From an uncultured Actinomycetes bacterium (GTDB taxonomy: Bacteria > Actinomycetota > Coriobacteriia > Anaerosomatales > CAVRZR01): a DNA stretch of 64,000 bases. The stretch covers positions 553,354 through 617,353 of the forward strand of contig CAWEJW010000001.1 of NCBI GenBank assembly GCA_963809535.1, read 5' to 3'. This document shows positions 7,001-60,682 of the stretch, piece by piece. Each line of letters opens with the position of its first letter. Within the stretch, counting starts at the first letter, position 1. The notes below the pieces were generated by a model that was given only the letters and a program-made list of their open reading frames with translations, was not told where the DNA came from and ran no database searches. A program made the position numbers and the translations under genes.

Positions 7001-7004
7001 CCAT

Positions 7005-7661
7005 ATGAGCGATTCCGGTATCACGACACCAAGGGCGCTTGTTCCTATTGTCGTTGAGCAGACGGCGAGAGGGGAGCGCAGCTTCGACATCTACTCGCGG
7101 CTACTCAACGAGCGGATCGTGTTCCTCGGACACGAGATCGATGATGTCATCGCCAACCTCGTGATCGCGCAGATGCTGCACTTGGAGAGCGAGGATCCTG
7201 ACAAGGACATCAGCCTCTACATCAACTCGCCGGGTGGTTCGGTCACGGCGGCGCTCGCCATCTACGACACGATGCAGTTCATCCGTTGCGATGTCGCGAC
7301 GATCTGCATCGGCCAGTGCGCGTCAGGCGCGGCCATCCTGCTCGCTTCGGGAGCCGCGGGTAAGCGTTCGGCACTTCCTAACAGCCGCGTCCTCATTCAC
7401 CAGCCATGGGGCGGGGCGCAAGGCCAGGTCACGGACATCGAGATCCAGGCCAAGGAACTGCTACGCACACGCGCCGCACTCGATACCATTCTCGCCAAGC
7501 ACACCGGCCAGACATGCGAGAAGATCCACGCGGACACCGAACGGGATAACATCATGACCGCGGAGGAAGCTCTGGCGTACGGATTGGTAGACAACGTCAT
7601 GGTCGACCGCGACACGCCGGTTGCGGTTGAGACCCAGAAGAAGAAGGCGGAGAAGAAGTAG
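7005..7661 (+). CDS. clpP: ATP-dependent Clp protease proteolytic subunit
   Basis: [23 protein letters not shown]...[25 protein letters not shown] and the active-site region G.CASGAA. ATG 7005 chosen inside ORF 6990..7661. Confidence 0.9.
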
Positions 7662-8945: not shown

Positions 8946-9157
8946 CACCCAGGCGGCCGGGCCCAGGGGTCCGGCGCTCAGACAGTCCTCGGCGGGGCCC
9001 TCGGCGCTCGGTCGCGCCACCGGCGCGCCCTCGCGCTTTCCCCGCGTGCGGAACTCGCCGGACGACCCCCGCCCCCCGGCCGCACGCCAGTGTCTACGGA
9101 TCGACTCGTGTTTGGACTGCGGCCGGACGCCGGGAAGACCCCCCACACTTCCAGCAT

Positions 9158-9283
9158 GAACCGCCCAAGCTGATGGACCAGCTTCGGGAGGCGCTCGGTT
9201 CCCACCACTACAGCCGCCGAAGCGAGCAAGCCTACTGCCTCTGGGTACGATGCTTCATCCGCTTCCACAACATGCGGCATCCG
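9158..9283 (+). pseudogene. intI: integron integrase (IntI-type tyrosine recombinase) N-terminal remnant, about 42 codons
   Basis: Translation [42 protein letters not shown] parallels IntI1 [37 protein letters not shown]. Similarity ends at 9283 and the catalytic domain is absent. Confidence 0.7.
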
Positions 9284-9335
9284 CTCGTGGACGTACACGG
9301 ACTGCATAATCTATTGTTAGGCGCATCGGGGGGCT

Positions 9336-9797
9336 GTGAACGTGAGCAACCATGAGTGGACACCGGTCACCTTCGAGCACTGCGAGCACGTCGAGGGACC
9401 CTTCTACCACGGAACGAAGTCCGTGCTGAAGCTGGGCGATGAGCTTATCCCCGGTTTCGGCTCCAACTTCCAGGAACGCAGGGTCTCCAACAACATCTAC
9501 TTTTCCGCGCTGGTGGACACCGCCGCCTGGGGAGCGGAGCTGGCGACGGCGCTGGAGGGGAGCGGGGGACCGGGACACATCTACATCGTCGAACCTCTTG
9601 GTTCCTTCGAGGATGACCCCAACGTCACCAACAAGAGATTCCCCGGCAATCCCACCGAATCCTACCGCACCCGGGAGCCGCTTCGAGTCGTCGGCGAGGT
9701 CGAGGACTGGGAGGGGCACAGCCCCGACGTGATTCGGGGGATGCTGGACCATCTGGCACAGCTCCGGGAGCATGGGCTGGACGTCATCGAGGACTAG
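9336..9797 (+). CDS. arr: rifampin ADP-ribosyltransferase (Arr family)
   Basis: Full-length resemblance to Arr-2/Arr-3: [70 protein letters not shown] and C-terminal GL.VIED. Start is GTG 9336 or ATG 9352, 14-30 nt after GTTAGGC. Confidence 0.85.
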
Positions 9798-9805
9798 GGA
9801 CACCG

Positions 9806-9870
9806 CGTCGGCGACTGCTGCAGGCCCACCGGGTTCGTCCTGACCGCTGCACAAAGTCGACACGTTACGC
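9806..9870 (+). repeat. possible heterologous attC of the arr cassette
   Basis: Imperfect palindrome GTCGGCGACTGCTGCAGG...CCTGACCGCTGCACAAAGTCGAC ending in CACGTTACGC (GTTACGC at 9864-9870). It lacks the AAGCGCATCGAGCGG signature of the other sites. Confidence 0.3.
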
Positions 9871-9880
9871 GCATACCGGT

Positions 9881-9982
9881 GCCTGACCAGCGCATCGAGC
9901 GGACGCCGAGCGGTAGAATCAACCAGTTGTCGGCTGTATCGTGAATCCGAATTACCAGGTGTTGCGCTGGCGCGAGTTGCCT
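9881..9982 (+). repeat. attC-like site with atypical 3' arm
   Basis: GCCTGACCAGCGCATCGAGCGG...GGTAGAATCA...TGCGCTGG...GTTGCCT. The 5' arm and loop match the family; the 3' arm is divergent. Confidence 0.45.
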
Positions 9983-10006
9983 ACGTCATCCAGTCGTCGG
10001 TGAGTC

Positions 10007-10084
10007 GCCTAACAGGCGCTTCCAGCGGGCTGCGCTTGCCGCTGAAGCCGGAGATGCTAGCGCCCTGCTCGGCGGCGGTTCGCG
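10007..10084 (+). repeat. attC-like site
   Basis: GCCTAACAGGCGCTTCCAGCGG pairs with CCGCTGAAGC, leaving one unpaired C. Ends at GTTCGCG (10078-10084). Confidence 0.45.
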
Positions 10085-10471
10085 CTAGTCGGCGTAGTCG
10101 TCTTGTACCTGCCCCGCCGGAACGAACAGGGGCCTGACCTCGACGCCGCCATCGCGGTTGGTCGGGTGGAGCTTGGCAACCTGCACCGCCACGTCGATAT
10201 TGGGTGCCGCCACCACGTAGAACGCGGAGACAACCAGGTCCGACTCCACGAGCGTTCCGCTTCGTACCGTGTCGCCTTGGACGGCCATCGCGGTCGTACT
10301 CGGGTCGAAGGCGAATCCCCGCTGCTTGGGGAAGTAGGTGCCACCTAGTATCTTGCCGCCGAGCGCTTTGGCTTGTGCAGGGTAGTCGTCGAGCAACCCC
10401 ACATGCTCCGCGGTGAATGCCATGGGGTCTGCAGGTGCCGGCGAGTAGACAACCATTCCGTACTGAGGCAT
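10085..10471 (-). CDS. YciI-like (YCII domain) protein
   Basis: 128 aa. Layout YGMVVY....ALGGKILGG....VVSAFYVVAAPNIDVAVQVAKLHP...GGVEVRPLF resembles YCII-domain proteins. It is the single ORF of one attC-bounded unit, on the reverse strand. Confidence 0.55.
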   Translation of the reverse strand: MPQYGMVVYSPAPADPMAFTAEHVGLLDDYPAQAKALGGKILGGTYFPKQRGFAFDPSTTAMAVQGDTVRSGTLVESDLVVSAFYVVAAPNIDVAVQVAKLHPTNRDGGVEVRPLFVPAGQVQDDYAD

Positions 10472-10523
10472 CGGGTGCTCCCTTCAATTGGAGTTGGGCC
10501 GTATGTCTCCACTGTTGCCGCCG

Positions 10524-10604
10524 CGCTAACAAGCGCATCGAGCGGACGCCGCGAGCTACATGTCCCGATGCGTCTGAGCGCCGCTCACGCGCACACCGTA
10601 GCTT
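10524..10604 (+). repeat. attC-like site
   Basis: CGCTAACAAGCGCATCGAGCGGACGCC...GAGCGCCGCTCACGCGCACACCGTAGCT. Confidence 0.7.
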
Positions 10605-10837
10605 GAGTCCCGCACCCCCTTGATTCCGCTACCCGCTTTGATCGTCCTGCAGCGGCCATCTACCCCCAGCCCGAACCGGGCCACCACCTGGTTCGAGAGG
10701 CGCTCGATGCGCCAGCCCTGCTCCAGACGGCGTGGAACGACCCCACCCTGCACAGCCTTTCGGGGCCTCACCGCTGGTTCATGCTCAGGCACGCCTGCGG
10801 TGCGCGCCCAGCGCCAGCACCCCCGCTCAACGCTCTA

Positions 10838-11599
10838 CTAGGAGATCCTGCGGCGGTAGATGACCATGGCGACGATGTACGCGACGATGAGGAGGCCGAC
10901 ACACCAGGCAAGGGCGATCCAGATGTCGGTGCCGACCGGCTGCTGCGTGAGCAGGTCGCGGATCGCGTTGACGATGGACGTCACCGGCTGGTTCTCGGCG
11001 AAGGCGCGCACCGGGCCGGGCATGGTGTCGGTGGGCACGAATGCCGAGCTGATGAACGGCAGGAAGATGAGCGGGTAAGAGAACACGACCGCGCCGTCCG
11101 CGGTCTTGGCGGAGAGACCGGGGATCACGGCGAGCCACGTCAACGCCAGGGTGAACAGGATCAGGATGCCGGCGACCGCGAGCCACGCCAGCACGTCCGC
11201 CCCCGAGCGGAAGCCCATGAGTAGGGCGACGAGCACGACGACCACGAGCGACATCAGAATGGCGACCAGCGAGGTCAGCACATGCGCCCACAGCACGGAC
11301 GACCGTGCGATCGGCATGGAGTGGAATCGGTCGAAGATGCCGCTGTTCATATCCAGGAAGAGCCGGAATGCGGTGTAGGAGACGCCCGAGGCAACCGTGA
11401 TGAGCAGAATGCCGGGCAGCAGGTAGTTCACGTAAGAAGCCGACCCTGAGTTGATCGCGCCGCCGAACACGAAGACGAACAGCAGCATGAAGGCGATGGG
11501 CATGATCGTGGTCGTGATGATGGTGTCCAAGCTGCGCGTGATGTGGCGCAGGGATCGTCCCGTCAGGACGGCGGTGTCGCCGAAGAAATGCGTGGTCAT
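10838..11599 (-). CDS. ABC-2 type transporter permease
   Basis: 253 aa with six predicted hydrophobic segments. N-terminus LTGRSLRHITRSLDTIITTTIMPIAFMLLF is typical of ABC-2/DrrB-like permeases. Immediately downstream of the ATPase gene. Confidence 0.8.
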   Translation of the reverse strand: MTTHFFGDTAVLTGRSLRHITRSLDTIITTTIMPIAFMLLFVFVFGGAINSGSASYVNYLLPGILLITVASGVSYTAFRLFLDMNSGIFDRFHSMPIARSSVLWAHVLTSLVAILMSLVVVVLVALLMGFRSGADVLAWLAVAGILILFTLALTWLAVIPGLSAKTADGAVVFSYPLIFLPFISSAFVPTDTMPGPVRAFAENQPVTSIVNAIRDLLTQQPVGTDIWIALAWCVGLLIVAYIVAMVIYRRRIS

Positions 11600-11608
11600 C
11601 GTTGTTCC

Positions 11609-12412
11609 TTACTCGTCCGTGCCGACACTGCGGTCATTGCCGGCGTCGCCGCCCTTGCCGTCGTCACCGACGATGGCAAGGAAGACGTCCTCGAGGGTCG
11701 GCTGCTTCTCGACGTATTCGACCTTGGCGGGCGGGAGCAGCAGCTTGAGTCCGGCAAGGGTGTCGTTCACGATGATCCGGCCCCCATGGAGGATCGCGAT
11801 CCGGTCGGCGAGTTGTTCGGCCTCGTCGAGATCCTGCGTTGTGAGCAGTACCGTCGTGCCGTGCTCGGCGAGCTCCTTGACGGTCTGCCACACCTCGATG
11901 CGCGCCTGGGGGTCGAGCCCGGTCGTCGGCTCGTCGAGAAAGATGACCTGCGGATTCCCGATGAGGCTCATCGCGATGTCGAGGCGGCGACGCATGCCGC
12001 CCGAATACGTCGACACCTTCCGCACTGCCGCGTCGGTCAGCGAGAAACGATGGAGCAGGTCATCCGCGATGTTGCCCGGGTCCTTGAGGTGCCGCAACCG
12101 GGCGACCAGCACGAGGTTCTCCCGCCCGGAGAGGACTTCGTCGACGGCCGCGAACTGTCCGGTGAGGCTGATGGACTCCCGCACGTCCGCAGCCTGCGTG
12201 GCGACATCGAAGCCGTTGACACTGGCAGTCCCTGCGTCGGCCTTGAGCAGAGTACACAGGATATTCACCACCGTGGTCTTGCCCGCCCCGTTCGCACCGA
12301 GCAGGGCGAAGATGCTGCCCCGCGCGACGTCGAAGTCCACGCCGCGCAGCACCTTCAGTTCCTTGTACGACTTCTCCAGGCCCTGCACGTGGATCGCGGG
12401 TGCGGCAGTCAT
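11609..12412 (-). CDS. ABC transporter ATP-binding protein (DrrA-like)
   Basis: Start at MTAAPAIHVQGLEKSY. Walker A GANGAGKTT, signature YSGGMRRRL and Walker B VIFLDEPTTGLD. ATGA overlap with the upstream DUF1048 stop. Confidence 0.9.
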   Translation of the reverse strand: MTAAPAIHVQGLEKSYKELKVLRGVDFDVARGSIFALLGANGAGKTTVVNILCTLLKADAGTASVNGFDVATQAADVRESISLTGQFAAVDEVLSGRENLVLVARLRHLKDPGNIADDLLHRFSLTDAAVRKVSTYSGGMRRRLDIAMSLIGNPQVIFLDEPTTGLDPQARIEVWQTVKELAEHGTTVLLTTQDLDEAEQLADRIAILHGGRIIVNDTLAGLKLLLPPAKVEYVEKQPTLEDVFLAIVGDDGKGGDAGNDRSVGTDE

Positions 12413-12786
12413 TCCCGCTCCCCTCGCTCTGCGTCCTCGATGGCCTTGGTCAGGCGGGCGCGTTCCTTGTCGATCCAATGCTTGCCGGTGTAGGCCTGGG
12501 CGAAGGTCTCGGCGAACTCGACCGGGTCGTCCCCGACGATCGCGCGCACCGGTGTCCCGTCGGCGGCAGCGCGCTCCCAGAGCTCGGCGAAGTCGTCGAA
12601 CATCTTGAGAGCAGTCTCGCCTTCGGTGGTGACGCCCCCGTAGTACATGAAGTATCGCTGCAGAGCCTTCGCGACAGCGTCATACGGCTCGGGAAGGGCA
12701 TCAATGCGGGCCCTGTACTGCTTGTACTGCCTCTTCTGCTCGAGCGAACCAGTGACGGTCTCGATCCACTTGGCGGCCATGATCAC
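12409..12786 (-). CDS. DUF1048 domain protein (PadR-operon accessory protein)
   Basis: 125 aa. KQYKQYRARIDALPEPY......LQRYFMY is typical of DUF1048 proteins encoded next to PadR regulators. Confidence 0.7.
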   Translation of the reverse strand: MIMAAKWIETVTGSLEQKRQYKQYRARIDALPEPYDAVAKALQRYFMYYGGVTTEGETALKMFDDFAELWERAAADGTPVRAIVGDDPVEFAETFAQAYTGKHWIDKERARLTKAIEDAERGERE

Positions 12787-13100
12787 TTGCCCCCTTCATT
12801 GAGCTGTTCCAGTCGTTGCGCGAGGAAGCTCCACGTCTTCCAGAACTCCTTGAGGTACTCCTGTCCCTGAACGTTGAGCGAATACACTTTGCGCGGCGGG
12901 CCCTTCTCGGACGGGTGCTTCTCCACACCGACGAGGCCTATTTGCTCGATCCTGACGAGCAGCGCGTAGACAGTGCCCTCGGCAATGTCGGAGAAACCCA
13001 TCTCCCGCAACCGCGCCGTGATCTCGTAGCCGTACGCAGGCCGTTCGGACAGGATCGCGAGGACGATGCCCTCGAGGGTGCCCTTGAGCATTTCTGTCAT
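12783..13100 (-). CDS. PadR-family transcriptional regulator
   Basis: MTEMLKGTLEGIVLAILSERPAYGYEITARLREMGFSDIAEGTVYALLVRIEQIGLV...PPRKVYSLN.QG is the canonical PadR wHTH. Start chosen at the internal ATG (13100) of ORF 12783..13157. Confidence 0.85.
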   Translation of the reverse strand: MTEMLKGTLEGIVLAILSERPAYGYEITARLREMGFSDIAEGTVYALLVRIEQIGLVGVEKHPSEKGPPRKVYSLNVQGQEYLKEFWKTWSFLAQRLEQLNEGGK

Positions 13101-13239
13101 CTGCTTGCCCACGGAGCACCACCTCGGTCTACTGAGCACTACTAGGTACTGGTACATAGTAACACAGAGTAGTCGCGATGCAAGTCCGACCCATGGCGGG
13201 AGATTGCGGGGTGACAGGGTCCGGGGATCCGGCAGACCA

Positions 13240-13326
13240 AGCTAACAAGCGCTTCGAGCCGACGTCGCGAGCGCGTGTGCTGTCGCCGGAAGCGATTGAG
13301 CGCCGCTCAAACGCACCACGTTCGAT
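13240..13326 (+). repeat. attC-like site
   Basis: AGCTAACAAGCGCTTCGAGCCGACG...GAGCGCCGCTCAAACGCACCACGTTCGAT. Confidence 0.7.
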
Positions 13327-13371
13327 GCACCGAGCTGAGCGGCCTGGCACTACTTCTCGTGCCGGCCCGCT

Positions 13372-13836
13372 TTAGTATTCGCCCTTGATCACAAAGTATG
13401 AACCGCGAATCGTCCCGGCCAGTTTGGACTTCTGCCTGACGAACTTGAACTTCGCCTCCAGCTCGCTGGGCACTTCCATCCCGTCTGAGAGCTTGAAGCC
13501 AACAGCTCGCTTCTTGGGGTCATCGATCGCATACATGACGTTGACCGAAAGGCCGTTCTCATAGAAGACGTAGGCGATTCTGAGGTTCTCCACCTGAAAG
13601 CGTGACGTCTCCAGAGGTTTGGCAGCAAACTCAATATCGCGTTCTTCCTTGAGGATTCGGTTCACGTAGTCCAGCGTGTCGCGGCTTTCGCTTGCCGCCG
13701 TGACCGTGAACTCATGCTTGTACTTGTTCATGAAGTACCGGGCTTCATTGGCACGCAGACCAGCAAGCGCTCCAGCTACGGGTGAAGTCTCCAGACCAAC
13801 CGTAGAGACGTTCTCGAAATCAACGATCTCGGACAT
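13372..13836 (-). CDS. hypothetical protein (orphan cassette ORF)
   Basis: 154-aa uninterrupted ORF, visibly more AT-rich than its flanks, with K/E/F/Y-rich composition. No family recognised. Sole ORF between two attC-like sites. Confidence 0.55.
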   Translation of the reverse strand: MSEIVDFENVSTVGLETSPVAGALAGLRANEARYFMNKYKHEFTVTAASESRDTLDYVNRILKEERDIEFAAKPLETSRFQVENLRIAYVFYENGLSVNVMYAIDDPKKRAVGFKLSDGMEVPSELEAKFKFVRQKSKLAGTIRGSYFVIKGEY

Positions 13837-13951
13837 CCGTCTCGCTCCCTCTCTCCATTCTTCACGGAATCGAGTAGCTCTTACCCGATGTCAGATGATG
13901 ACGAACCGGCCACATTGAGAGCGAGCAATCTACACGGCCCGACTCGTGGGC

Positions 13952-14034
13952 GTCGAACAAGCGCATCGAGCGGGCAGCGTCAGGCACATTCGTCCCGACG
14001 TGCCGGACCGCCGCTCATGCGCACGACGTTGGGC
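13952..14034 (+). repeat. attC-like site
   Basis: GTCGAACAAGCGCATCGAGCGGGCAGCG...GGACCGCCGCTCATGCGCACGACGTTGGGC. Confidence 0.75.
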
Positions 14035-14099
14035 CTAGCCCGGGAATCCGCTGGTGGGAAGCGAGAGCGCCCCCCTCGGGGTGTTCAGTGCTCCTGCCC

Positions 14100-14813
14100 T
14101 CAGCAGCGCACCGCCCGGCGCTTGAAGCCGATCCTGCCCTTCTCCGCAGCTTTGCGAATCTGTTCGGCAGCACTGCCCAAAGGCTTGACTCTGCCGTTCG
14201 AGACTACCTCCACCGCCCCTATGTCGTCAGCAGTCTTCAGCGCCTCATCATGCAGCGGCTGATACGACACGCCAACGGCGACGATGAAGTTGCTCATGGC
14301 GTGCTTTAGGCGGGGTGATGCCGCGTGGATGGTCGCGGCAGCGAGTTCCAGCAACTCACCGACAGTCTCAGGTTCAAAGTAACTGTCCGGTCGCCACCCC
14401 AGCAGCCATTCGTAACATGCCCAGCCGGCGGATGCCCTGTTCTCTTCGCCACTGCGGATCCACCGGTTAGCCACTCTCTGGGCAAAGTCGGACTCAGCAA
14501 GCGTCACCGCGACTACAAAGTCCGAGAGCATCGCAGAATAGGCGCCATCTATCCAGCGTTCAAAACTTGCCTCAGTCATCACGCGGACATCTGCGATCAT
14601 TCCGGCGAAATACATTGCGTCATAGTTGCCGCTGTCCCACAGCTTCTCTGCGAGCGCTTGGTCCACGCCAATCTGCTTCTTGAGCGGCTTCATCGCACCC
14701 GTCGCTACGCCAAAGAGCGGCTCCCTGACTCCCCTCGACAGGTAGCTCTTCTTGGTACGCGCGGTGCCGAGGGATTCCAACTCGCACATAACCGAATCGA
14801 AGTCCAGGAACAT
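14100..14813 (-). CDS. DNA alkylation repair protein (AlkD-like HEAT-repeat family)
   Basis: 237 aa. LESLGTARTKKSYLSRGVREPLFGVATGAMKPLKKQIG.DQALAEKLWDSGNYDAMYFAGMIAD resembles the pfam DNA_alkylation family. Confidence 0.65.
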   Translation of the reverse strand: MFLDFDSVMCELESLGTARTKKSYLSRGVREPLFGVATGAMKPLKKQIGVDQALAEKLWDSGNYDAMYFAGMIADVRVMTEASFERWIDGAYSAMLSDFVVAVTLAESDFAQRVANRWIRSGEENRASAGWACYEWLLGWRPDSYFEPETVGELLELAAATIHAASPRLKHAMSNFIVAVGVSYQPLHDEALKTADDIGAVEVVSNGRVKPLGSAAEQIRKAAEKGRIGFKRRAVRC

Positions 14814-14897
14814 GGCACCTCATTTCAAACGCAGGCATTGATGTCAGGCTCACATTGTATGGCTAGCTCGTCGGCCCGCTTGGGGACTCGTGGACAG

Positions 14898-14981
14898 GCT
14901 TAACAAGCGCATCGAGCGGAAACCGCACGGTTAGAATCATCCCACGGCGCGTGAGCGCCGCCCGTGCGCACCACGTTAGGC
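14898..14981 (+). repeat. attC-like site (best-preserved copy)
   Basis: GCTTAACAAGCGCATCGAGCGGAAACCGCACGGTTAGAATCATCCCACGGCGCGTGAGCGCCGCCCGTGCGCACCACGTTAGGC. The terminal GCTTAAC / GTTAGGC are near-complementary. Confidence 0.8.
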
Positions 14982-14987
14982 GGATAC

Positions 14988-15563
14988 GTGAGAGACGTTG
15001 TCTACATCGCATCGATCTCGGTCGACGGGTTCCTCGGAGCCGAAGACGCGGACAACGCATGGGTCGTCCCAGACCCGGAGTTGCATCGACACTTCAACAC
15101 TCTCGAAGGTTCGTTCGATACGCATCTGTACGGTCGCCGCATGTATGAGCTGATGGCGCAATACTGGCCCGCCGCAGACGAACTGCCTGACGCCCCTGAC
15201 TACGTGGTTGAATACGCTCGAATCTGGAGAGCGATGCCCAAGGTCGTGTTCTCCAAGTCGCTTCATCAGGTCGAATGGAACTCCCGCTTGTTCGCTGGCG
15301 ACGCCGTCGGGGAGGTGGCGCGGCTCAAGACTGAGCACGGTGCATCCATGAGTGTCGGCGGGGCCGCTCTGGCAACATCGCTGGCGCAGCACGGATTGAT
15401 CGACGAGTTCCGCTTCTATGTGATGCCGACCGTCGTCGGATCGGGGACACCCATCTTCGGCGCGTTGGGTCGGCACATCGATCTCACCACCGCCGAGGTC
15501 CGGCAGTTCAGCTCAGGCGCTGTCCTGCTCAGGTACCGCGCGCAATCGTCCGTTACCGCCTGA
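14988..15563 (+). CDS. dihydrofolate reductase family protein (RibD C-terminal domain type)
   Basis: VVYIASISVDGF......LHRHFN.....DT.LYGRRMYELMAQYWP.A.....APDYVVEYARIW..MPKVVFS..L..VEWNSRL..GDAV.EV.RLK. GTG 14988 lies 7 nt after GTTAGGC; the TGA stop lies inside the next GCCTGAC. Confidence 0.75.
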   Translation: MRDVVYIASISVDGFLGAEDADNAWVVPDPELHRHFNTLEGSFDTHLYGRRMYELMAQYWPAADELPDAPDYVVEYARIWRAMPKVVFSKSLHQVEWNSRLFAGDAVGEVARLKTEHGASMSVGGAALATSLAQHGLIDEFRFYVMPTVVGSGTPIFGALGRHIDLTTAEVRQFSSGAVLLRYRAQSSVTA

Positions 15564-15638
15564 CAATGGCATCGAGCGGGCGGCGCCAGCGCTAGACTCA
15601 TGAGGCATGGGCCGCCGCTCATGCCAAGCACGTTAAGC
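15558..15638 (+). repeat. attC-like site
   Basis: GCCTGACAATGGCATCGAGCGGGCGGCGCCAGCGCTAGACTCATGAGGCATGGGCCGCCGCTCATGCCAAGCACGTTAAGC. Confidence 0.75.
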
Positions 15639-15691
15639 GTCCTTGCAGAACCGTTCGCGGCCCCGCAAGGACCGCCGTCCTTGGGAGAACA

Positions 15692-16258
15692 ATGGCCGAT
15701 CACGAGTCCAGATACTTCACGCTGAGCCTGGAGTCGCTCAGGGCCATTGCAGGCTGGGCTGCGGATTGTGCTGAGAGAGCGCTGTCGGTGTATGAGACGC
15801 ACGCCGATTCAGACTCACGGCCCCGTGCGGCGATCGAGGGCATCCGGGAGTTCGCGGGTGGCGCAAAGCGCATGGCTCGGTTGCGTTCCCTTGCTTGTGA
15901 GGCGAATGCCGCTGCGCGTGAGGTCGGCGATCCTGCTGCAGCGGCCGCTGCTCGCGCGGCGGGCCTTGCGGCGGCCAGTGCCTACACGCATCCCCTAGCG
16001 GATGTCCATCAAACGAAGCACATTGTCGGTCCAGCGGCCTATGCCGCACTGGCTCTTGAGCTCGACCACGATGGCGATCCGAGTGTCGCCGAGGGCGAGG
16101 TCCGCTGGGCAATCAAGCACGCCCCCTCTGAAGCGCGGGAGGTCTTGCTCCAGATGCCCGCTCGTCAAGCCGGCGAGAGTCGGTTGGACACGATCCTCTA
16201 TGAGCTGGATGCGGGCATCCGGGTTCGGAACTTGCCGCAAGACGCCCAAACACGTTAG
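15692..16258 (+). CDS. hypothetical alanine-rich helical protein (possibly immunity-protein-like)
   Basis: 188-aa ORF starting 54 nt after GTTAAGC. All-helical Ala-rich composition; family assignment is not secure. Confidence 0.55.
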   Translation: MADHESRYFTLSLESLRAIAGWAADCAERALSVYETHADSDSRPRAAIEGIREFAGGAKRMARLRSLACEANAAAREVGDPAAAAAARAAGLAAASAYTHPLADVHQTKHIVGPAAYAALALELDHDGDPSVAEGEVRWAIKHAPSEAREVLLQMPARQAGESRLDTILYELDAGIRVRNLPQDAQTR

Positions 16259-16260
16259 CC
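16220..16260 (+). repeat. degenerate attC 3' arm / R' core
   Basis: ...GCCGCAAGACGCCCAAACACGTTAGCC matches only the conserved 3' end (..AACACGTTAGGC) of the family. No clear 5' arm. Overlaps the stop of the preceding ORF. Confidence 0.3.
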
Positions 16261-16416
16261 ACACCCGAGCGCGAGGATGGGCAGGATCTCGTTCTCGTGC
16301 TGAGTGCGCTCATAGGCCTGCGCGCTCTGCAGGACGGCTGACGCACGGCCACGCTGAGTGATGATGAAATGCGGCCGGCATCATTAAGCGCGCGGCGGTA
16401 TCGGATGAGCCGATAG
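16261..16416 (+). pseudogene. Phd/YefM-type antitoxin remnant (N-terminally truncated, internal TGA)
   Basis: Frame reads TPEREDGQDLVLVLSALIGLRALQDG*RTATLSDDEMRPASLSARRYRMSR*, ending 3 nt before parE. It resembles the ..VVLVSAEEYE.L.ETLELLSDPE... C-terminal half of Phd/YefM. No start codon. Confidence 0.4.
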
Positions 16417-16419
16417 CTC

Positions 16420-16722
16420 GTGCGGGTCTGCTTCGTCCCACAGGCGCGCACCCAGTACCTCGCATCGCTGCGCTACGTGCGCACGCAGAGTCCTGCGGCG
16501 GCAGAAGCCATCCAGTTCCGCTCAGAGGCCGCCGTATGTCGGCTCCGCGCGCACTTTCGCTCGGGGCACTCGATCCCGGAGTTCGTTGACCTGCCGCACC
16601 TCGAGGTGCCGGTGGAACCCTACCGATTCTTCTACCGCGTCGCAGAGGAAGCCGCGTGGATCGTCGGCGTCTGGCATGCCCGTCAGTTGCCGGAGAGCCC
16701 GGACTCCCCGCTGCGTGGCTAG
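16420..16722 (+). CDS. parE: ParE/RelE-family type II toxin
   Basis: 100 aa. Has F.P.A...Y......Y....SP.AA..I......A...L...P.....IPEF.....E.PV.PYRFFYRV......IVGVWHARQ, the typical ParE layout. Confidence 0.7.
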   Translation: MRVCFVPQARTQYLASLRYVRTQSPAAAEAIQFRSEAAVCRLRAHFRSGHSIPEFVDLPHLEVPVEPYRFFYRVAEEAAWIVGVWHARQLPESPDSPLRG

Positions 16723-16845
16723 CCGGCGCTTCGACCTGATAACCTCGGCAAGACAGCTGCGCTCCTTTCGACTGAACCTCGCGCTCGGTTTCGCATACGT
16801 GACGACGGCGGACACGATCGTCGCACGGCTGACCACTCAGTCGTC

Positions 16846-16908
16846 GCCTAACAGCGCCATCCCGCCGGACGGCGCATCGCATCGCCGCTGATGCCGCACA
16901 GGCTAGGC
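16846..16908 (+). repeat. short attC-like site
   Basis: GCCTAACAGCGCCATCCCGCCGGACGGCGCATCGCATCGCCGCTGATGCCGCACAGGCTAGGC. Confidence 0.55.
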
Positions 16909-16964
16909 GACGGCAACGGGGGCGTAAGATTGAGTTGTCTCCTCGAAGCGGTTTCGTGTCTCCG

Positions 16965-17684
16965 ATGCGGAGAGCGATGAGACTCGCAGACGACCTGTAC
17001 AGGATCGACGGAATCGCGGGGGCCAACGTCTACCTGTTGGTAGCCGAGGACGGACTGACGCTGATCGATGCTGGCATGCCGGGGAACGCCGAGACGATCC
17101 TCGCCGCGATCAAGGGCATCGGCCTGGAGCCGAACGAACTTCGCCGTATCCTCCTGACGCACTCAGATCCTGACCACTCCGGCAGCGCCGCCCAGCTCAA
17201 GGACCTGACCGGCGCCTTGGTGGCGATCCACGGAGAGGACGCTCCCGCCTTGGCCGGAAAGAGGCGGAAGAGGACCGACGGGACCGGCGCCGCCCCGATG
17301 CGGAGTTCGAACATCGCTCGCGTCGGCCATAACCTAGCCATGCGCCTCGTCTTCAAGCTCTCGGGTCGGTTTCGTGACTTCAGGCCCGTCGACGCAGACA
17401 TCCTCCTCAAAGACGGCGACACGATCTCGGGCCTTCGCGTCATGCACGTTCCGGGACATACCCGGGGCAGCATCGCCCTTTGTCGCGAAGACGGCGTGGT
17501 GTTTTCCGGAGACGCCCTCCTGACCGATAGAGCTGGCCGCGTTCAGCCTCCGGCAGACGCCTTGGCTCTCAATCCTGCCAGAGCGTTTGCATCGGCCGAT
17601 AAGATTGAGTCGCTCGGATTCACGACTCTGTTGCCGGGACACGGGCCACCGGTTCGGCGAAACCGCGAGCAAGAACGCCGCTAG
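16965..17684 (+). CDS. MBL-fold metallo-hydrolase
   Basis: ANVYLLVAEDGLTLIDAGMPG and the metal motif LLTHSDPDHSGSA, followed by VPGHTRGS. Start uncertain: TTG 16935, ATG 16965 or ATG 16977. Confidence 0.8.
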   Translation: MRRAMRLADDLYRIDGIAGANVYLLVAEDGLTLIDAGMPGNAETILAAIKGIGLEPNELRRILLTHSDPDHSGSAAQLKDLTGALVAIHGEDAPALAGKRRKRTDGTGAAPMRSSNIARVGHNLAMRLVFKLSGRFRDFRPVDADILLKDGDTISGLRVMHVPGHTRGSIALCREDGVVFSGDALLTDRAGRVQPPADALALNPARAFASADKIESLGFTTLLPGHGPPVRRNREQERR

Positions 17685-17780
17685 GCACACGGACCAGGAC
17701 AGCCAAGGGAGAGCGCAGTCGTCGTATCGTTCATGCTGGTCGGAGCGCTGCTCAGGTCCGGGCGACACCGCTCCAAAGCC

Positions 17781-17863
17781 GCCGGAGAAACGGATCGAGC
17801 GGACGACGTCAACGCTAGACCGGAGCTCGCGCAGGAGGGCCGCTCATGCGCAACACGTTAGGC
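17781..17863 (+). repeat. attC-like site
   Basis: GCCGGAGAAACGGATCGAGCGGACGACGTCAACGCTAGACCGG...GGGCCGCTCATGCGCAACACGTTAGGC. The R'' end is degenerate; the 3' arm is canonical. Confidence 0.7.
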
Positions 17864-17893
17864 CGATTCGGTCGCTCTTCGGAGCGGAGCATA

Positions 17894-18262
17894 GTGGCAC
17901 CGGTCGTAGTCGTGATCTCATCCACCCTGGGATGGCCAGCGCTTGAACTCGCCGTGTTCTGGCTTCGGTTCCACCACCTCCCCTCGAATGGCGCGGTTGA
18001 GGCTCTTGTCTTCGCTCCCATGGGATTGGTTGCGGGCCTCGTCGCTGCAGTACTGATGAACCGGGCCTCGACCTCGCGCCAGCGGCGTTTCGTGCTCTGG
18101 GGCTATCTTGCCGCGAGCCCGTTTGCCCTGGTCGGTGCACTGCTGGGCGGGCTCGTGCTTCCGGGAGTGTGGGGGCCACTCGTGTCGGGGGCGATGCCGC
18201 TCGCCGTGGGCTGTCTGCTAGGGTTCGCTGTTGGTCGTTCGCGCGACAGCGGAACGGCCTAA
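17894..18262 (+). CDS. small hydrophobic membrane protein, unknown function
   Basis: About 122 aa with 3-4 hydrophobic segments. In-frame GTG 31 nt after GTTAGGC. The TAA stop lies inside the next GCCTAAC. Confidence 0.45.
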   Translation: MAPVVVVISSTLGWPALELAVFWLRFHHLPSNGAVEALVFAPMGLVAGLVAAVLMNRASTSRQRRFVLWGYLAASPFALVGALLGGLVLPGVWGPLVSGAMPLAVGCLLGFAVGRSRDSGTA

Positions 18263-18317
18263 CAACCGCATCGAGCAGACGGCCTTCGGCCGCCGCTGAT
18301 GCGCCCAACGGTAGGTG
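18257..18317 (+). repeat. short attC-like site
   Basis: GCCTAACAACCGCATCGAGCAGACGGCCTTCGGCCGCCGCTGATGCGCCCAACGGTAGGTG. Confidence 0.65.
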
Positions 18318-18342
18318 TGGCATTTCCCGGAAGGGCAGAGCC

Positions 18343-18867
18343 GTGGAGATAGTGCCGCTCGATTCCTCCGATCGCGACTGGGTCGCTTCGCTCATGCGCG
18401 AGCACTTTGGGTCGGAACGCGTGGTTGTACGCGGCCGGATGCTCGATACGTCGACGCTTCCCGGACTCGTTGCTCTCCGCGATGACACTCGCGTCGGATT
18501 CCTCCACTACCTGCTCGGCGGTGCGGAGTGCGAGGTCGTCTCACTCGTCTCGACTGTTCCCCGCACCGGCGTCGGCAGGATCTTGCTCGACGCACTTGGC
18601 GACTTCGCCGCCTCGCGCGGCGCGAACAAGCTCGTTCTCGTGACCACCAACGACAACGTTTCGGCGCAGCGCCTCTACGAGGCTTGCGGGTTCGAACACT
18701 CTGCCACGCGCCCTGGAGCCATCTCGCGCGCCCGTCAGCTCAAGCCTGAGATCCCGCTCAGCGGCCAGGGCGGGACGGCCATCGAGGACGAACTGGAGTA
18801 CCAACGAAGGCTCGTGCACACCGGACAAGCGCATCAACCTGACGCGCACAGGTCGCGCGTAGACTGA
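18343..18867 (+). CDS. GNAT-family N-acetyltransferase
   Basis: GTG 18343 gives VEIVPLDSSDRDW... The acetyl-CoA pocket motif is present: VVSLVSTVPRTGVGRILLDALGDFAASRGA..LVLVTTNDN..AQRLYEACGF. The ORF 3' end runs into the next attC-like site. Confidence 0.8.
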   Translation: MEIVPLDSSDRDWVASLMREHFGSERVVVRGRMLDTSTLPGLVALRDDTRVGFLHYLLGGAECEVVSLVSTVPRTGVGRILLDALGDFAASRGANKLVLVTTNDNVSAQRLYEACGFEHSATRPGAISRARQLKPEIPLSGQGGTAIEDELEYQRRLVHTGQAHQPDAHRSRVD

Positions 18868-18906
18868 GAGGGAAGCGGCGCGCCGGTTGTGCGCACGACG
18901 CTAGGT
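18820..18906 (+). repeat. attC-like site
   Basis: ACCGGACAAGCGCATCAACCTGACGCGCACAGGTCGCGCGTAGACTGAGAGGGAAGCGGCGCGCCGGTTGTGCGCACGACGCTAGGT. Confidence 0.6.
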
Positions 18907-18953
18907 GCGATCGCGACAAAGACGGGGGTGTGCAGTGAACCAGACTCTGTTGT

Positions 18954-19166
18954 ATGCAGCGTCCGCACTCCGGGGTTGCCCCGCAGCCCGATGAGGGAAC
19001 GGCGGCCCATCTCTTCCGGCTGCTCATGATCACGCAGGTGCCGATCGTCACGTTCTTCGCGCTCAAGTGGTTGCCGCGGGCTAGAAGGCAGGCGTTGGAG
19101 GTACTTGCCTTGCAGGCCGCCGCCGCGCTCGCAGCATTGGCACCCGTTTACCTCTTGAAGTGGTGA
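18954..19166 (+). CDS. small hypothetical membrane protein
   Basis: 70-aa ORF with two hydrophobic stretches. Only ORF in a 380-bp attC-bounded unit. Confidence 0.35.
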   Translation: MQRPHSGVAPQPDEGTAAHLFRLLMITQVPIVTFFALKWLPRARRQALEVLALQAAAALAALAPVYLLKW

Positions 19167-19201
19167 ACGAGTTCGAGCGAAGCCGGAATCGACTTCAGCC
19201 G

Positions 19202-19286
19202 GTCTGGCAAGCGCATCGAGCAGAACGCCGGAAGGTAGACTGACTTGAGAGCGCATCGGCGTCTGCTCATGCGCAACACGTTCGAC
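19202..19286 (+). repeat. attC-like site
   Basis: GTCTGGCAAGCGCATCGAGCAGAACGCCGGAAGGTAGACTGAC...GGCGTCTGCTCATGCGCAACACGTTCGAC. Confidence 0.7.
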
Positions 19287-19304
19287 CTGGCCCAAGGGGG
19301 GACG

Positions 19305-19766
19305 ATGAGACACGCCCGGGCGGTCGTGGTGGCGGTCGCGGTGCTCGTCGCCACCTCGTCGGTGGCATGTACTGCGGCCAAGGCCCCTACCCAGATTCAT
19401 GAGACGACCTCGTCGACCGGAGATGGTCCTACTCTCACTGGCGTCGTCGGGGACATCGTGGGCGGGCGGGTTGGTGAGGGTGAGAACGTCACCGTCGTGG
19501 GCTACTGCCGGGGTTGGGACCTTCTGGGGGAGGTGGACGGTCCGCCGCCAGTGACGAGAAGCGACTGGGTGATACGAGACGACGGTGGCGCAGTCTACGT
19601 CCAAGCGAATGGCGTCCAGGTCACCGGGAAGCTCCCGGACGACGCTGGGCGCCTTCCCTCACAACCAACGACGACGACCTATGTGCTCGAAGTGACGGGC
19701 ATGGTACGCACATCTTCGGAAGGCAGGCCCTACATCGAGCCTTCCGCCATAGCGTTCGTGAGATGA
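19305..19766 (+). CDS. secreted lipoprotein, function unknown
   Basis: MRHARAVVVAVAVLVATSSVACTAAK (signal peptide plus Cys). ATG is 19 nt after GTTCGAC and is preceded by GGGGGGA. Confidence 0.6.
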   Translation: MRHARAVVVAVAVLVATSSVACTAAKAPTQIHETTSSTGDGPTLTGVVGDIVGGRVGEGENVTVVGYCRGWDLLGEVDGPPPVTRSDWVIRDDGGAVYVQANGVQVTGKLPDDAGRLPSQPTTTTYVLEVTGMVRTSSEGRPYIEPSAIAFVR

Positions 19767-19788
19767 GGCCCTGGACCTCGAGTGGCGT

Positions 19789-19892
19789 GTCAACCAGCGC
19801 TTCGACCTGGCAGACCTCGGCTAGGGAACTACGCTGGGGCTACAAGCGCTCGCGGCCTCGGTTTGCAGGCCAAGCGCTCAGCGACGTTGGGC
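19789..19892 (+). repeat. long attC-like site
   Basis: TGTCAACCAGCGCTTCGACCTGGCAGACC...GGCCAAGCGCTCAGCGACGTTGGGC. Confidence 0.55.
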
Positions 19893-19952
19893 CAGAATCG
19901 GATCGTGGCAGGTGGGCTAGCAGGGGATACGGCCGAAGGTTATCGTGTGAGC

Positions 19953-20375
19953 ATGGCTTCTCGAGAGGAGGGGCTGGTGAGCAGGGTCGTAGCGCGATAC
20001 GCCGACGGTCGGATAGTCAAGGGCGTGACAGCCGACTTCTTCCCGGGGAAGGACCTATTCCACGTGAGGGAGGCGAGCGCCCCAGTCGAGGCGAAGCCCC
20101 TGGAGGTCCACACGAAGGACTTGAAGGCGTTGTTCTTCGTGAAGGACTTCGCAGGCGACCCGCAGCGCGTCGACCGGAATGAGTTCGACACCTCACGCCC
20201 ACTGCCCGGGCGCCGGATCAGGGTGGTATTCAAGGACGGCGAAATCGTGGTGGGAACCACGACAGGCTATCAGCCCGGACGCCCGGGGTTCTTCATCGAA
20301 CCGGCGGATGCCGAGTCAAACAACGAACGGTGCTATGTAGTCGCAGCGGCGACCCGAGACGTCAGCTTCTTCTGA
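19953..20375 (+). CDS. conserved hypothetical protein with an internal two-fold repeat
   Basis: 141 aa from ATG 19953. YADGRIVKGVTADFFPGKDLFHV is echoed by FKDGEIVVGTTTGYQPGRPGFFIEP. I cannot name a characterised family. Confidence 0.55.
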   Translation: MASREEGLVSRVVARYADGRIVKGVTADFFPGKDLFHVREASAPVEAKPLEVHTKDLKALFFVKDFAGDPQRVDRNEFDTSRPLPGRRIRVVFKDGEIVVGTTTGYQPGRPGFFIEPADAESNNERCYVVAAATRDVSFF

Positions 20376-20405
20376 CACGCATGGCACCACTTGAGGCGAG
20401 CAGCC

Positions 20406-20503
20406 CCCGAACAAAAGGATTGAGCCCACAACGCGCCTCAGAAGTCGGACCAGGGTTCGAGGGGGTAGCCGGCGCCCCGCAGCTCATCCGCCCGTCGTTG
20501 GGC
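20406..20503 (+). repeat. attC-like site
   Basis: CCCGAACAAAAGGATTGAGCCCACAACGCG...CCGCAGCTCATCCGCCCGTCGTTGGGC. Confidence 0.55.
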
Positions 20504-20572
20504 GCGACGCGTAGGCGGGTATGAATCGCTGCAGACAGGACTACGGTGGCTGCAGACCGATGGAGGCGGGTC

Positions 20573-20992
20573 ATGATGACGACGAGCACCAACGGCTCCG
20601 GCACCCGGGAGGATCCCTGGATCCTCAAGACCCCGAGCGGATCGTCGGAGTACCAGATGTATCGCGATGAGACCGCCGATCCGCCGGCACTCGTGTGCGT
20701 CGTCGGGAAGACCGTGCTCGGCTATCAATTGCGCGCCATCGAGGACCTCCACGCGATGCTCAAGGAGAACGGCGACTGGATGCCTCTCGGCAGCGCTGAC
20801 GAGCAGAAGCCTGCCGCAGAGGGTACGGTCGAAGCGTGGGGCCGCTCACCGAACAATCCGGTCGGTGGCTGGTACGGGCTCAAGAAGGGCCTGCGCGGGC
20901 GCTTCGGGATGTACATGCCCCCGCTACTGGAGGCTCTCGGACTCGCTGAGGTCGAACACAACCCGCGGAACAACCGGATGCGAGCGTTGTAG
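20573..20992 (+). CDS. conserved hypothetical protein
   Basis: 139 aa from ATG 20573 (GGAGG 8 nt upstream). Recognisable blocks are DPW.L.TP..SSEY.MYRD, LGSADEQKPAAEGTVEAW, NPVGGWYGLKKG.RGRFG and HNPRNNRMRA. Function unknown. Confidence 0.55.
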   Translation: MMTTSTNGSGTREDPWILKTPSGSSEYQMYRDETADPPALVCVVGKTVLGYQLRAIEDLHAMLKENGDWMPLGSADEQKPAAEGTVEAWGRSPNNPVGGWYGLKKGLRGRFGMYMPPLLEALGLAEVEHNPRNNRMRAL

Positions 20993-21035
20993 TCATGCTG
21001 TGCCGCTGGCATCCGCGCTCGCGGGAGTGGTCGCG

Positions 21036-21124
21036 CCGCCCAAAAGGCGCGTCAAGCTAACGGCCAGAAGCTAGACTGCGGAAGAGCGTCGCTACGCCTC
21101 GGGTCATGCGGCACGACGCTCGCC
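21036..21124 (+). repeat. terminal, degenerate attC-like site
   Basis: GCCGCCCAAAAGGCGCGTCAAGCTAACGGCCAGAAGCTAGACTGCGG...CGGGTCATGCGGCACGACGCTCGCC keeps the loop CTAGAC and a 3' arm like ..TCATGCGCACGACG.. but has a weak R'. Confidence 0.45.
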
Positions 21125-21294
21125 AGGGCAGCCCACGGATGCCCAGTCCCCTCGGCAGATCATCCCGAAACGACACCCAAGTTCGGGCGCGGGACTATTC
21201 GCTCGGACGGAGGAGCGGTCGGCTAACGCGTCGGCGTCCGAACGGGATAATGTGAAGTCGGCGATGCCATCCCCGTGCAAGAGAGCGGTGTTTC

Positions 21295-22143: not shown

Positions 22144-22311
22144 TCCGAGTACCCGAGCCCCTCCGGATGCGCCGTCTCCGAAGGGGATCGCCCTCTCGAG
22201 GATCCTCGGACAAGCGGTTCGGAAGAGGCATTCTGCCCGGCCATGCGCCCGAGGCGCGCTTCCCCTACAATCGTGCCCACGCTTCACGCGAGAACGAACA
22301 GGAAGGGCCCG

Positions 22312-57676: not shown

Positions 57677-60682
<3,006 letters not shown>

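Follow-up and report, generated by a model that had tools for sequence, protein, structure and literature searches.

A probable chromosomal integron without its integrase between clpX and valS of an uncultured actinobacterium

Introduction

The sequence analyzed here, referred to below as the window, is a stretch of 64,000 nucleotides from an uncultured Actinomycetes bacterium (GenBank assembly GCA_963809535.1, contig CAWEJW010000001.1, positions 553,354 to 617,353). Between clpX and valS it carries the 5' end of an integron integrase gene (intI), a putative attI recombination site, and a series of gene cassettes, the first of which is the rifampin ADP-ribosyltransferase gene arr, delimited by imperfect palindromes of the attC type. 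We conclude that this element is very probably a chromosomal integron that lost its integrase. The anatomy of the sites, the truncation of intI, the insertion between clpX and valS, the presence of an array at the same site in a related genome, and the existence of intact homologous systems were each observed directly; the recombination mechanism is proposed by homology.

No actinobacterial genome contained a complete integron in the complete-genome surveys of Cury et al. (2016) and IntegronFinder 2.0, which suggested that establishment of integrons in this phylum is hindered by 'some unknown mechanism' (PMC4889954, PMC9024848), and a 2026 study of permafrost metagenome-assembled genomes (MAGs) described a 'virtual absence' of integrons in Actinomycetota (PMC13323075). 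The original prediction for this locus, made from the sequence alone, had taken native integrons to be essentially absent from Actinobacteria, which is indeed what has been published. According to a 2021 review, Actinobacteriota are one of the phyla in which integrons have been detected, and a text search of the literature, incomplete in coverage, found no paper on native integrons of Thermoleophilia or Coriobacteriia.

Results

Eleven strong and three weak attC-type sites, together with two half-sites, were recovered between 9.9 and 21.1 kb of the window by a covariance model, R1, and by repeat families. All are on the + strand, in agreement with the approximately 16 copies predicted between 9316 and 21124. 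R1 was built on ten of the sites (A and C-K; Table 1) using a ten-site alignment (A2) and hand-written pairing, and was run with filters off against both strands of the entire window. Alignment A2 replaced an alignment of all 15 sites by MAFFT and RNAalifold, in which the arms were misaligned and only four pairs were found. The consensus of the window sites is GCCTAAC-AA-GCGCAT-C-GAGCGG ... CCGCTC-ATGCGC-NNNRC-GTTRGGC, and its pairing model comprises seven pairs in the R box and six plus six pairs in the L box, split by one unpaired C. Within A2, 85% of the cells are paired as against 26-36% in slid registers, compensatory changes occur in 8 of the 19 pairs, and all ten training sites have the same base in the extrahelical C/G column. 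The training sites score 47-85 bits, the untrained site B 47 bits, and the distal sites L, M, and N 12.7-16.5 bits, while the reverse strand of the window sites gives no more than 10.6 bits. Half-site O was missed by R1 and shows no R box pairing when folded.

Strong R1 matches are confined to the + strand between 10005 and 19289, and the other 52 kb of the window have no strong copy, their best match scoring 22.9 bits. That match (28501-28568, - strand, E ~4e-4) lies within the thrS coding sequence, has no repeat features, and was judged to have arisen by chance. In 70 kb from relatives that lack an array, R1 found nothing at E<=0.1, and no Rfam family matched the window repeats at its gathering score.

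The same anatomy holds across 117 sites from 28 sources (alignment A4). In this alignment, which was fitted to R1 and so favours the structure, 91.1% of the cells are paired (26-34% in slid registers), compensatory cells number 251 compared with 82.8 +/- 6.6 in shuffles, and double changes occur in 12 of the 19 pairs. The sites are 61-110 nt long (median 92) with a variable central region, and their consensus is GCCYAAC for R'' and GTTRGRC for R'. Counted by column over the 117 sites, R'' has G/A in 108, C/T in 97, C in 109, T/C in 90, and A-A-C in 111, 112, and 115, and R' has G in 116, T in 107, T in 113, A/G in 92, G in 111, G/A in 101, and C/T in 104. The unpaired C of the top strand, which is a G on the bottom strand, lies 8 nt from R'' (position 16) in 111 of the 117 sites. 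Six pairs beyond G16, a top-strand A, equivalent to a bottom-strand T23, is found in 96 sites, and in 99 the base at position 23 must bulge for the stem to continue, the next four positions pairing at a mean of 3.25 with the bulge and 0.60 without it. In the definition of Nivina et al., attC sites are 57-141 bp long and have a 6-bp stem that separates G16 from a conserved T at 23/24 (PMC5027507). Judged by their core motifs, covariation, and the predicted extrahelical G16 and T23 of the bottom strand, the window repeats behave like attC sites, and the R''/R' layout originally proposed for them holds.

Directly upstream of arr, where an N-terminal IntI remnant had been predicted, the sequence at 9164-9285 matches the start of integron-integrase profiles. 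The match to Pfam Phage_int_SAM_4 (1e-9) covers profile positions 1-38, and the matches to the NCBIfam integron-integrase models NF011946 and TIGR02249 are limited to positions 1-38 and 15-54. The remnant is 67.5% identical to the N-terminus of the IntI encoded at L097, and in an alignment with intact IntI proteins (A3) its homology ends after the residues RHP. A search for homologous proteins with the 58-aa remnant, which had no five-residue words in common with the proteins searched, gave no match. No second intI or integrase-like sequence was found in the window by tblastn, and a metagenome scan with a 20-mer from the remnant yielded 14 chance matches, none with intI or with homology to the window.

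The remnant runs into the putative attI core ACGTACACGGACTGCATAATCTATTGTTAGGC (9290-9321), and arr starts 15 nt after this core. At L097, three TTACGCAG-type repeats follow the stop codon of intI; the last of them is GTTACGCAGTCTGCAGAATCCTTGTTAGGC, and the first cassette begins at its GTTAGGC. The arrangement after the intI stop codon is the same at L012. Compared by eye, the window core resembles the last repeat of L097 and L012 and the repeats of L120 described below, and the stretch after the remnant may have functioned as attI. The original layout would have been intI, attI, and the cassette array downstream of clpX, all co-directional (an 'inverted-integrase' integron), and on the simplest reading a deletion of approximately 0.9 kb would have taken out everything between intI codon ~42 and the putative attI core.

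The gene order around the element was compared with that of relatives, the interval between clpX and valS being one that the original prediction had proposed to check. At L126, clpX is followed by a 0.8 kb gap and then valS-folC-thrS, and at L125 (Coriobacteriia MAG GCA_053578315.1) by 3.7 kb, containing an insertion sequence (IS) element and a MerR gene, and then valS-folC-thrS. Adjacency of clpX and valS, seen in these more distant relatives, is the ancestral order, and therefore the window integron and the GGDEF gene that follows it are an insertion of approximately 13 kb. In L121 and L122 (80-83% identical), as well as in L123 and L124, other genes follow clpX; at E<=0.1, R1 found no site in these four loci except one 17-bit match in L121, 9.5 kb from clpX on its upstream side.

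Across the relatives, the region that follows clpX is a hotspot, occupied by an IS element, RuBisCO genes, a signalling block, or an integron. L125 has the IS element (DDE_Tnp_1) and MerR gene at 11893-13362, and L121 has a cold-shock gene and a CheB/CheR-GAF signalling block at 11479-20022. L123 (7870-9773) and L124 (2810-4713), metagenome contigs from the Joint Genome Institute (JGI) whose ClpX is 89% identical to that of the window, have RuBisCO large and small subunit genes directly downstream of clpX, which is unexpected for a Coriobacteriia-like lineage.

The closest counterpart of the window element is at L120, where the sequence matches that of the window at 82% identity from tig through clpP and clpX into the spacer. 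Directly after clpX it carries an array with five strong attC sites, two of ~20 bits, and one of 16.5 bits. Its cassettes (HigB with a helix-turn-helix (HTH) gene, TetR, alcohol dehydrogenase (ADH), RibD_C, aminotransferase, GNAT) are all different from those of the window. L120 also has three attI-like repeats at 11510-11640 (CTTACACGGACTGCG, GTTACGCGGAAGTGC, and GTTACGCGGACTGCAG), and no trace of intI was found there by tblastn. Because the window keeps the N-terminus of intI and one repeat and L120 keeps three repeats without intI, the two losses of intI appear, from the sequences that remain, to have been independent. The guanine-plus-cytosine (GC) content of the array, 63.65%, equals that of the window (63.7%), and no transposase or Tn402-type gene was seen among the open reading frames (ORFs) scanned in and around the array. 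Taken together, the same-site array with different cassettes in L120, the equal GC content, the lack of transposase genes, and the ancestral clpX-valS order point to an integron that settled at clpX before the window and L120 species split, followed by cassette turnover and by loss of intI at least twice in different ways. The suggestion that the array is long resident has thus gained support.

The window sites also differ from those elsewhere in the state of their cores. The GTT core is lost (to GCT, GGT, or G-T) in 5 of the 11 strong window sites as compared with 8 of the 106 elsewhere (Fisher p=0.0024), and several R'' boxes have GAC, GAG, or GGC in place of AAC. Two further irregularities lie in unit 7. 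No recognizable attC follows its Imm5-like gene, the only R1 match being one of 8.6 bits at 16252-16345, and the ORF list for 16240-16440 contains no intact antitoxin gene upstream of the ParE-family toxin gene, only short reading-frame fragments. Two cassettes seem to have been joined here by a deletion that also took out the ParE antitoxin (window 16262-16722). Given the loss of GTT cores, the altered R'' boxes, the two half-sites, the three weak distal sites, the Imm5-like unit without attC, and the ParE gene without antitoxin, the array looks like one that has been eroding under relaxed selection since intI was lost. The cassette array that had been predicted is real, and it is probably a decaying one rather than an intact platform.

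The features of the locus are listed in Table 1. That arr is the first unit had been predicted correctly, and its product shows ~62% identity to the Arr-3 and Arr-2 proteins found on clinical plasmids; one of the cassettes at L007, a locus of a Coriobacteriia MAG, encodes a homologue with 53% identity. The predicted pattern of one ORF per unit, starting after GTTRRRY, applies to approximately 9 of the 14 units and breaks down in cassettes 2-5, whose genes are on the minus strand. The two stop codons predicted to lie inside R'' boxes are a TGA at 15561-15563 in GCCTGAC and a TAA at 18260-18262 in GCCTAAC. Units have a median length of 692 bp over the window and its relatives, and the longest ORF is co-oriented with attC in 68 of 87 units, by a longest-ORF rule that is crude in GC-rich DNA. 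For a single cassette, the PadR-DUF1048-ABC transporter operon of unit 3 is unusual in its size and in being self-regulated.

Table 1. Positions of the genes, recombination sites, and cassettes of the element and its flanks. Positions are those of the window; scores in bits are from R1.
Feature	Position	Strand	Remarks
tig	5522-7000	+	Upstream flank of array
clpP	6990-7661	+	Single copy, between tig and clpX
clpX	7662-8945	+	Upstream chromosomal flank; Pfam zf-C4_ClpX and AAA_2
intI remnant	9164-9285	+	First ~40 codons; N-terminal SAM-like domain, catalytic domain absent
Putative attI core	9286-9321 (~30 nt)	+	GTTAGGC crossover box at 9315-9321
Unit 1: arr, rifampin ADP-ribosyltransferase	9336-9797	+	Pfam Arr-ms 1e-43
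Half-site O	9881-9903	+	Good R''-L'' arm GCCTGACCAGCGCATCGAGCGGA; 3' arm absent; repeat families D1, D3, D5
attC A	10007-10063	+	47.0 bits; R' mutated GCTAGCG, core triplet GCT
Unit 2: weak YCII-like protein	10085-10471	-	Pfam YCII 0.002, below curated cut-off
attC B	10524-10602 (R1 match 10522-10606)	+	47.2 bits, E 6e-11; untrained; R' degenerate CGTAGCT
Unit 3 (2.7 kb): PadR, DUF1048, ABC ATPase, ABC-2 permease operon	10838-13122	-	Pfam PadR, DUF1048, ABC_tran, ABC2_membrane
attC C	13240-13328	+	73.8 bits
Unit 4: 154-aa protein, no family	13372-13836	-	Sub-threshold Pfam match only
attC D	13952-14036	+	85.5 bits; best preserved; bottom strand a predicted hairpin with bulged G
Unit 5: DNA alkylation repair-like protein	14100-14813	-	Pfam DNA_alkylation 3e-11
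attC E	14898-14984	+	80.3 bits
Unit 6: RibD_C (dihydrofolate-reductase-like)	14964-15563	+	Pfam RibD_C 5e-21; stop codon inside R'' of attC F
attC F	15558-15640	+	78.2 bits
Unit 7: Imm5-like immunity protein	15692-16258	+	Pfam Imm5_like 2e-23
Unit 7, second gene: ParE-family toxin	16420-16722	+	Pfam ParE_toxin 2e-8
Half-site	16718-16739	+	5' arm only; repeat family D5
attC G	16846-16909	+	51.4 bits; R' GCTAGGC, core triplet GCT
Unit 8: metallo-beta-lactamase-fold hydrolase	16935-17684	+	Pfam Lactamase_B 7e-28
attC H	17781-17865	+	75.6 bits
Unit 9: hydrophobic 138-aa protein, no family	17846-18262	+	Stop codon inside R'' of attC I
attC I	18257-18317	+	54.3 bits; R' GGTAGGT, core triplet GGT
Unit 10: GNAT acetyltransferase	18343-18867	+	Pfam Acetyltransf_1 8e-10
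attC J	18820-18905	+	65.9 bits; R' GCTAGGT, core triplet GCT
Unit 11: 70-aa ORF, no family	18954-19166	+	
attC K	19202-19285	+	72.9 bits
Unit 12: 153-aa protein, no family	19305-19766	+	Signal-peptide-like N-terminus
attC L	19788-19892	+	Weak, divergent; 16.5 bits, E 0.024
Unit 13: DUF6982	19953-20375	+	Pfam 1e-27
attC M	20405-20505	+	Weak, divergent; 13.4 bits
Unit 14: DUF6855	20546-20992	+	Pfam 4e-72
attC N	21036-21126	+	Last site; weak, divergent; 12.7 bits
GGDEF diguanylate cyclase gene	21295-22143	+	Downstream flank; Pfam
valS	22243-24906	+	Downstream flank, followed by folC and thrS; Pfam

The best named homologues of the window ClpX are all from Coriobacteriia MAGs, at ~80% identity; an identical ClpX is on record for a contig of 1.44 Mb, apparently the one that contains the window. 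Many Actinobacteria have a clpP1-clpP2 pair between tig and clpX; a single clpP occupies this position in the window, and clpP is also single in L120-L126. The 23S rRNA gene of the window (57676-60681) is approximately 80 nt longer than the 2925-position Rfam model; a search of model positions 1111-1613 for the actinobacterial 23S insertion revealed no large insertion, and the extra ~80 nt are elsewhere. The + strand of the window has a positive GC skew (0.026) and carries the rRNA operon along with the housekeeping genes; if it is the leading strand, the attC bottom strands are on the leading-strand template.

Arrays of the same type were found in other genomes. A scan of 185,579 species-representative genomes with AACAAGCGCATCGAGCRG returned at least 119 loci, many of which are single chance matches, and R1 identified tandem same-strand arrays of the window site type in at least 17 Actinomycetota MAGs. 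Among the loci listed, such arrays are present in ten Thermoleophilia MAGs, in three Coriobacteriia MAGs (L012, L007, and L081 with L112), and in four MAGs labelled Actinomycetes or Actinomycetota (L071, L077, L116, and L118). In Thermoleophilia the number of sites at E<=0.001 reaches 15 in 8 kb at L021, 9 at L107, 9 at L091, and 17 at L040 plus L067. Three Chloroflexota MAGs among the loci listed have one site each, and sites were also found there in single MAGs labelled Eubacteriales, Chlorobiaceae, and Spirochaetaceae. Misbinning is an unlikely explanation of the arrays, since several are on contigs of 190-700 kb. No clpX was found in L001-L119 by tblastn, and the insertion site is therefore not common to the Thermoleophilia arrays or to L012. 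The lineage had been predicted to be an unusual one for such an element; against the published surveys the host is indeed unusual, but the element is not a singleton, as public MAGs hold many arrays of this type, some with an intact IntI.

Full-length IntI was found by tblastn at L097 (a 641-kb Thermoleophilia contig), at L012 (a 503-kb Coriobacteriia contig), and at L025, and a frameshifted integron integrase was found at L053. The three full-length proteins score 471-480 bits on the TIGR02249 'integron integrase' model (cut-off 265) and 362-378 bits on the class-1 equivalog, below its cut-off of 435. Alignment A3 shows both the catalytic region and the IntI-specific ALERKYP...WxWxWVF segment to be retained in them. 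Their genes are upstream of the attC sites on the same strand, and the window remnant is oriented alike. Annotation pipelines label thousands of close metagenomic IntI homologues 'integron integrase', including one from an Aeromicrobium MAG.

Two loci binned outside Actinomycetota may be mentioned here. L095, a 27-kb contig binned as Chlorobiaceae, has an attC site at 5701-5788 (- strand) that at 83 bits is on a level with the sites of the window itself, with a partial IntI match upstream of it on the same strand (6658-6861, -); either this integron type has been transferred across phyla or the contig is binned in error. In a MAG labelled Eubacteriales, L114 (14-4158) and L066 (175-255) carry seven attC sites, on a 4-kb contig with a GC content of 0.53-0.57; six of these are full sites of 55-74 bits, and the seventh, which the contig end interrupts, scores 31 bits. 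Either the attC subtype reaches beyond Actinomycetota or this bin is mixed.

Discussion

By homology with known integrons, the IntI of the working relatives, a tyrosine recombinase, would bind the folded bottom strand of the attC hairpins, on which G16 and T23 mark the strand, and would excise cassettes by attC x attC recombination and insert them at attI, at the G/TT of GTTRRRY. With intI deleted, the approximately 14 cassettes of the window would no longer move, except through another integrase working in trans.

The window element would classify as a cluster of attC sites lacking an integron integrase (CALIN) descended from a chromosomal integron. It has at least two same-strand attC sites (11 strong and 3 weak) and no callable intI nearby, the remnant being without the C-terminal IntI domain by which IntegronFinder calls intI. 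An intact intI adjoining the array, the mark of a complete integron, is present at L097, L012, and L025 and absent from the window. Like the CALIN of Cury et al. (2016), the array holds cassettes mostly of unknown function and few resistance genes, and loss of intI is one proposed origin of CALIN (PMC4889954). Unlike them, it keeps an intI fragment and a putative attI core attached, such that its origin by integrase deletion can be read directly; a pseudo-intI was nearby in only 15 of the 279 CALIN of that survey (PMC4889954). Its host also sets it apart, as only 'a few CALIN' have been reported in Actinomycetota (PMC9024848).

The element shares with sedentary chromosomal integrons, such as the Vibrio cholerae superintegron with its V. 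cholerae repeats (VCR), a location between housekeeping genes, homogeneous attC sites, the presence of a toxin gene and of many cassettes whose function is unknown, a related species (L120) with other cassettes at the same locus, and attC bottom strands that are probably on the leading-strand template, as is the case in 25 of 30 sedentary chromosomal integrons (PMC5371416). It differs from them in its truncated intI, which reads toward the array rather than away from it, in having only ~14 cassettes, in its absence from the close relatives L121 and L122, and in its host, an actinobacterium and not a proteobacterium. By the rule of Cury et al. (2016), a sedentary integron has more than 19 attC sites or occurs in 100% of a species' genomes; the window array, with ~14-16 sites, falls outside this rule.

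With inverted-integrase integrons it shares the co-directional order intI-attI-cassettes, with the putative attI at the 3' end of intI, intact at L097, L012, and L025 and as a remnant in the window. This same-strand layout is a recognized variant (PMC13323075); the host phyla differ, being Actinomycetota and Chloroflexota here, and the likeness observed is one of layout. Class 1 integrons carrying arr-2 or arr-3 resemble the window element in attC architecture and in the position of arr as first cassette next to the putative attI, and the IntI of the relatives is ~54% identical to an IntI1 sequence. The differences from class 1 lie in Arr, which is only ~62% identical to the clinical versions, in the scores of the relatives' IntI on the class-1 model, in the lack of a Tn402 or 3'-conserved-segment context in the window, and in the opposite orientation of intI.

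Several observations weigh against reading the element as an actinobacterial integron that lost its integrase. R1 was trained on ten of the window's own sites, so that their high scores are expected by construction; independent support comes from the untrained site B and from 106 sites in other genomes. The predicted fold also differs from the usual one. The central spacer of attC sites is usually unpaired over 5-6 nt per arm (PMC5027507), whereas the fold predicted here leaves two unpaired nucleotides (AA) in the R''-L'' arm and five in the L'-R' arm and has an L-proximal stem of 6 bp. Restricting the L box to the three pairs adjacent to the bulge gives spacer arms of 5 and 8 nt; G16 lies at its canonical distance from R'', and the opposite arm is 2-3 nt longer. 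Cassettes 2-5 (10064-14984) are four consecutive reverse-oriented units, more than is typical. Placement of the host at the level of class comes from the best ClpX matches alone. Finally, no sigma-70-like promoter was found on the + strand at 8900-9400, and hence none upstream of arr, in a scan that did not extend to actinobacterial promoter types. A terminator was likewise sought and not found on this strand in the same stretch, the clpX-arr spacer; with neither a promoter of this kind nor a terminator between the two genes, read-through from clpX is the most likely means of arr expression. The reverse-oriented cassettes would use promoters of their own.

Among the alternatives, the strongest is that the array is still a working reservoir, an intact integrase elsewhere in the genome reshuffling its cassettes in trans and making the local loss of intI inconsequential. 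The six strong sites with an intact GTT core and the invariant C/G column are compatible with continued use, as are the L120 array, which has no intI and yet has four of its five cores intact, and the report by Cury et al. that, for about half of CALIN, IntI is encoded on the same replicon (PMC4889954). We nevertheless consider this unlikely: the window has no second intI, mutated GTT cores are in excess over those of other arrays, and the half-sites and fused cassettes suggest relaxed selection.

It is far less probable that a mobile integron, or a fragment of one, was acquired recently through a transposon or plasmid and is not native. Neither the GC content of the array nor the genes scanned in and around it, none of them of transposase or Tn402 type, betray such an arrival, and a same-site array with entirely different cassettes in the ~82%-identical L120 speaks against it. 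A position in an interval that attracts foreign DNA in relatives (L125 has an IS element there and L123 RuBisCO genes) and the lack of an array in the close relatives L121 and L122 would fit recent arrival. So would the presence of arr, a classic mobile-integron resistance gene, as the first cassette, but its product is only 62% identical to clinical Arr-2 and Arr-3, the IntI proteins of the relatives are below the class-1 equivalog cut-off, and the attC type recurs mainly in other arrays of Actinomycetota. That the sites are instead repetitive extragenic palindromic (REP) elements, miniature inverted-repeat transposable elements (MITEs), or terminators that resemble attC by chance is scarcely credible, since these GC-rich imperfect palindromes between genes form one 12-kb block in a single orientation, far outscore the other strand, have no strong copy in the 52 kb of flanks or the 70 kb of relatives (the scatter by which the original prediction would have been refuted), have the specific G16/T23 bulges, adjoin integron integrases in three genomes, and form tandem same-strand arrays in others, and no terminator-like site was seen at 8900-9400, the sole stretch scanned, which does not include the attC sites.

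A chromosomal integron that lost its integrase is a known kind of element in an under-recognized lineage, not a new mechanism. Public data hold the pattern, which seems not to have been drawn out. We lean, by a modest degree, toward the view that uncultured Actinomycetota (in particular Thermoleophilia and environmental Coriobacteriia) and some Chloroflexota carry a native and partly vertical integron lineage, with a same-strand integrase and its own attC subtype (canonical G16/T23, asymmetric 2/5-nt spacer). If this is true, the window is one decayed member of a native actinobacterial integron lineage, and the statement that integrons are absent from Actinobacteria reflects the lineages that have been cultured and completely sequenced rather than a barrier at the level of the phylum.

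The reported absence in Actinomycetota becomes testable, as real, lineage-specific, or an artefact of detection, and the IntI of L097 and L012, the attC subtype, and the putative three-repeat attI are concrete parts for experiments. The window locus itself offers what looks like a natural example of how deletion of the integrase gives rise to a CALIN that then decays, and its environmental arr, metallo-beta-lactamase-fold, and GNAT cassettes join the pool that mobile integrons might in principle capture. The element contradicts a repeated generalization on integrons in Actinobacteria: an array among core genes in the window, together with those in at least 17 Actinomycetota MAGs, indicates that integrons can establish and persist in this phylum.

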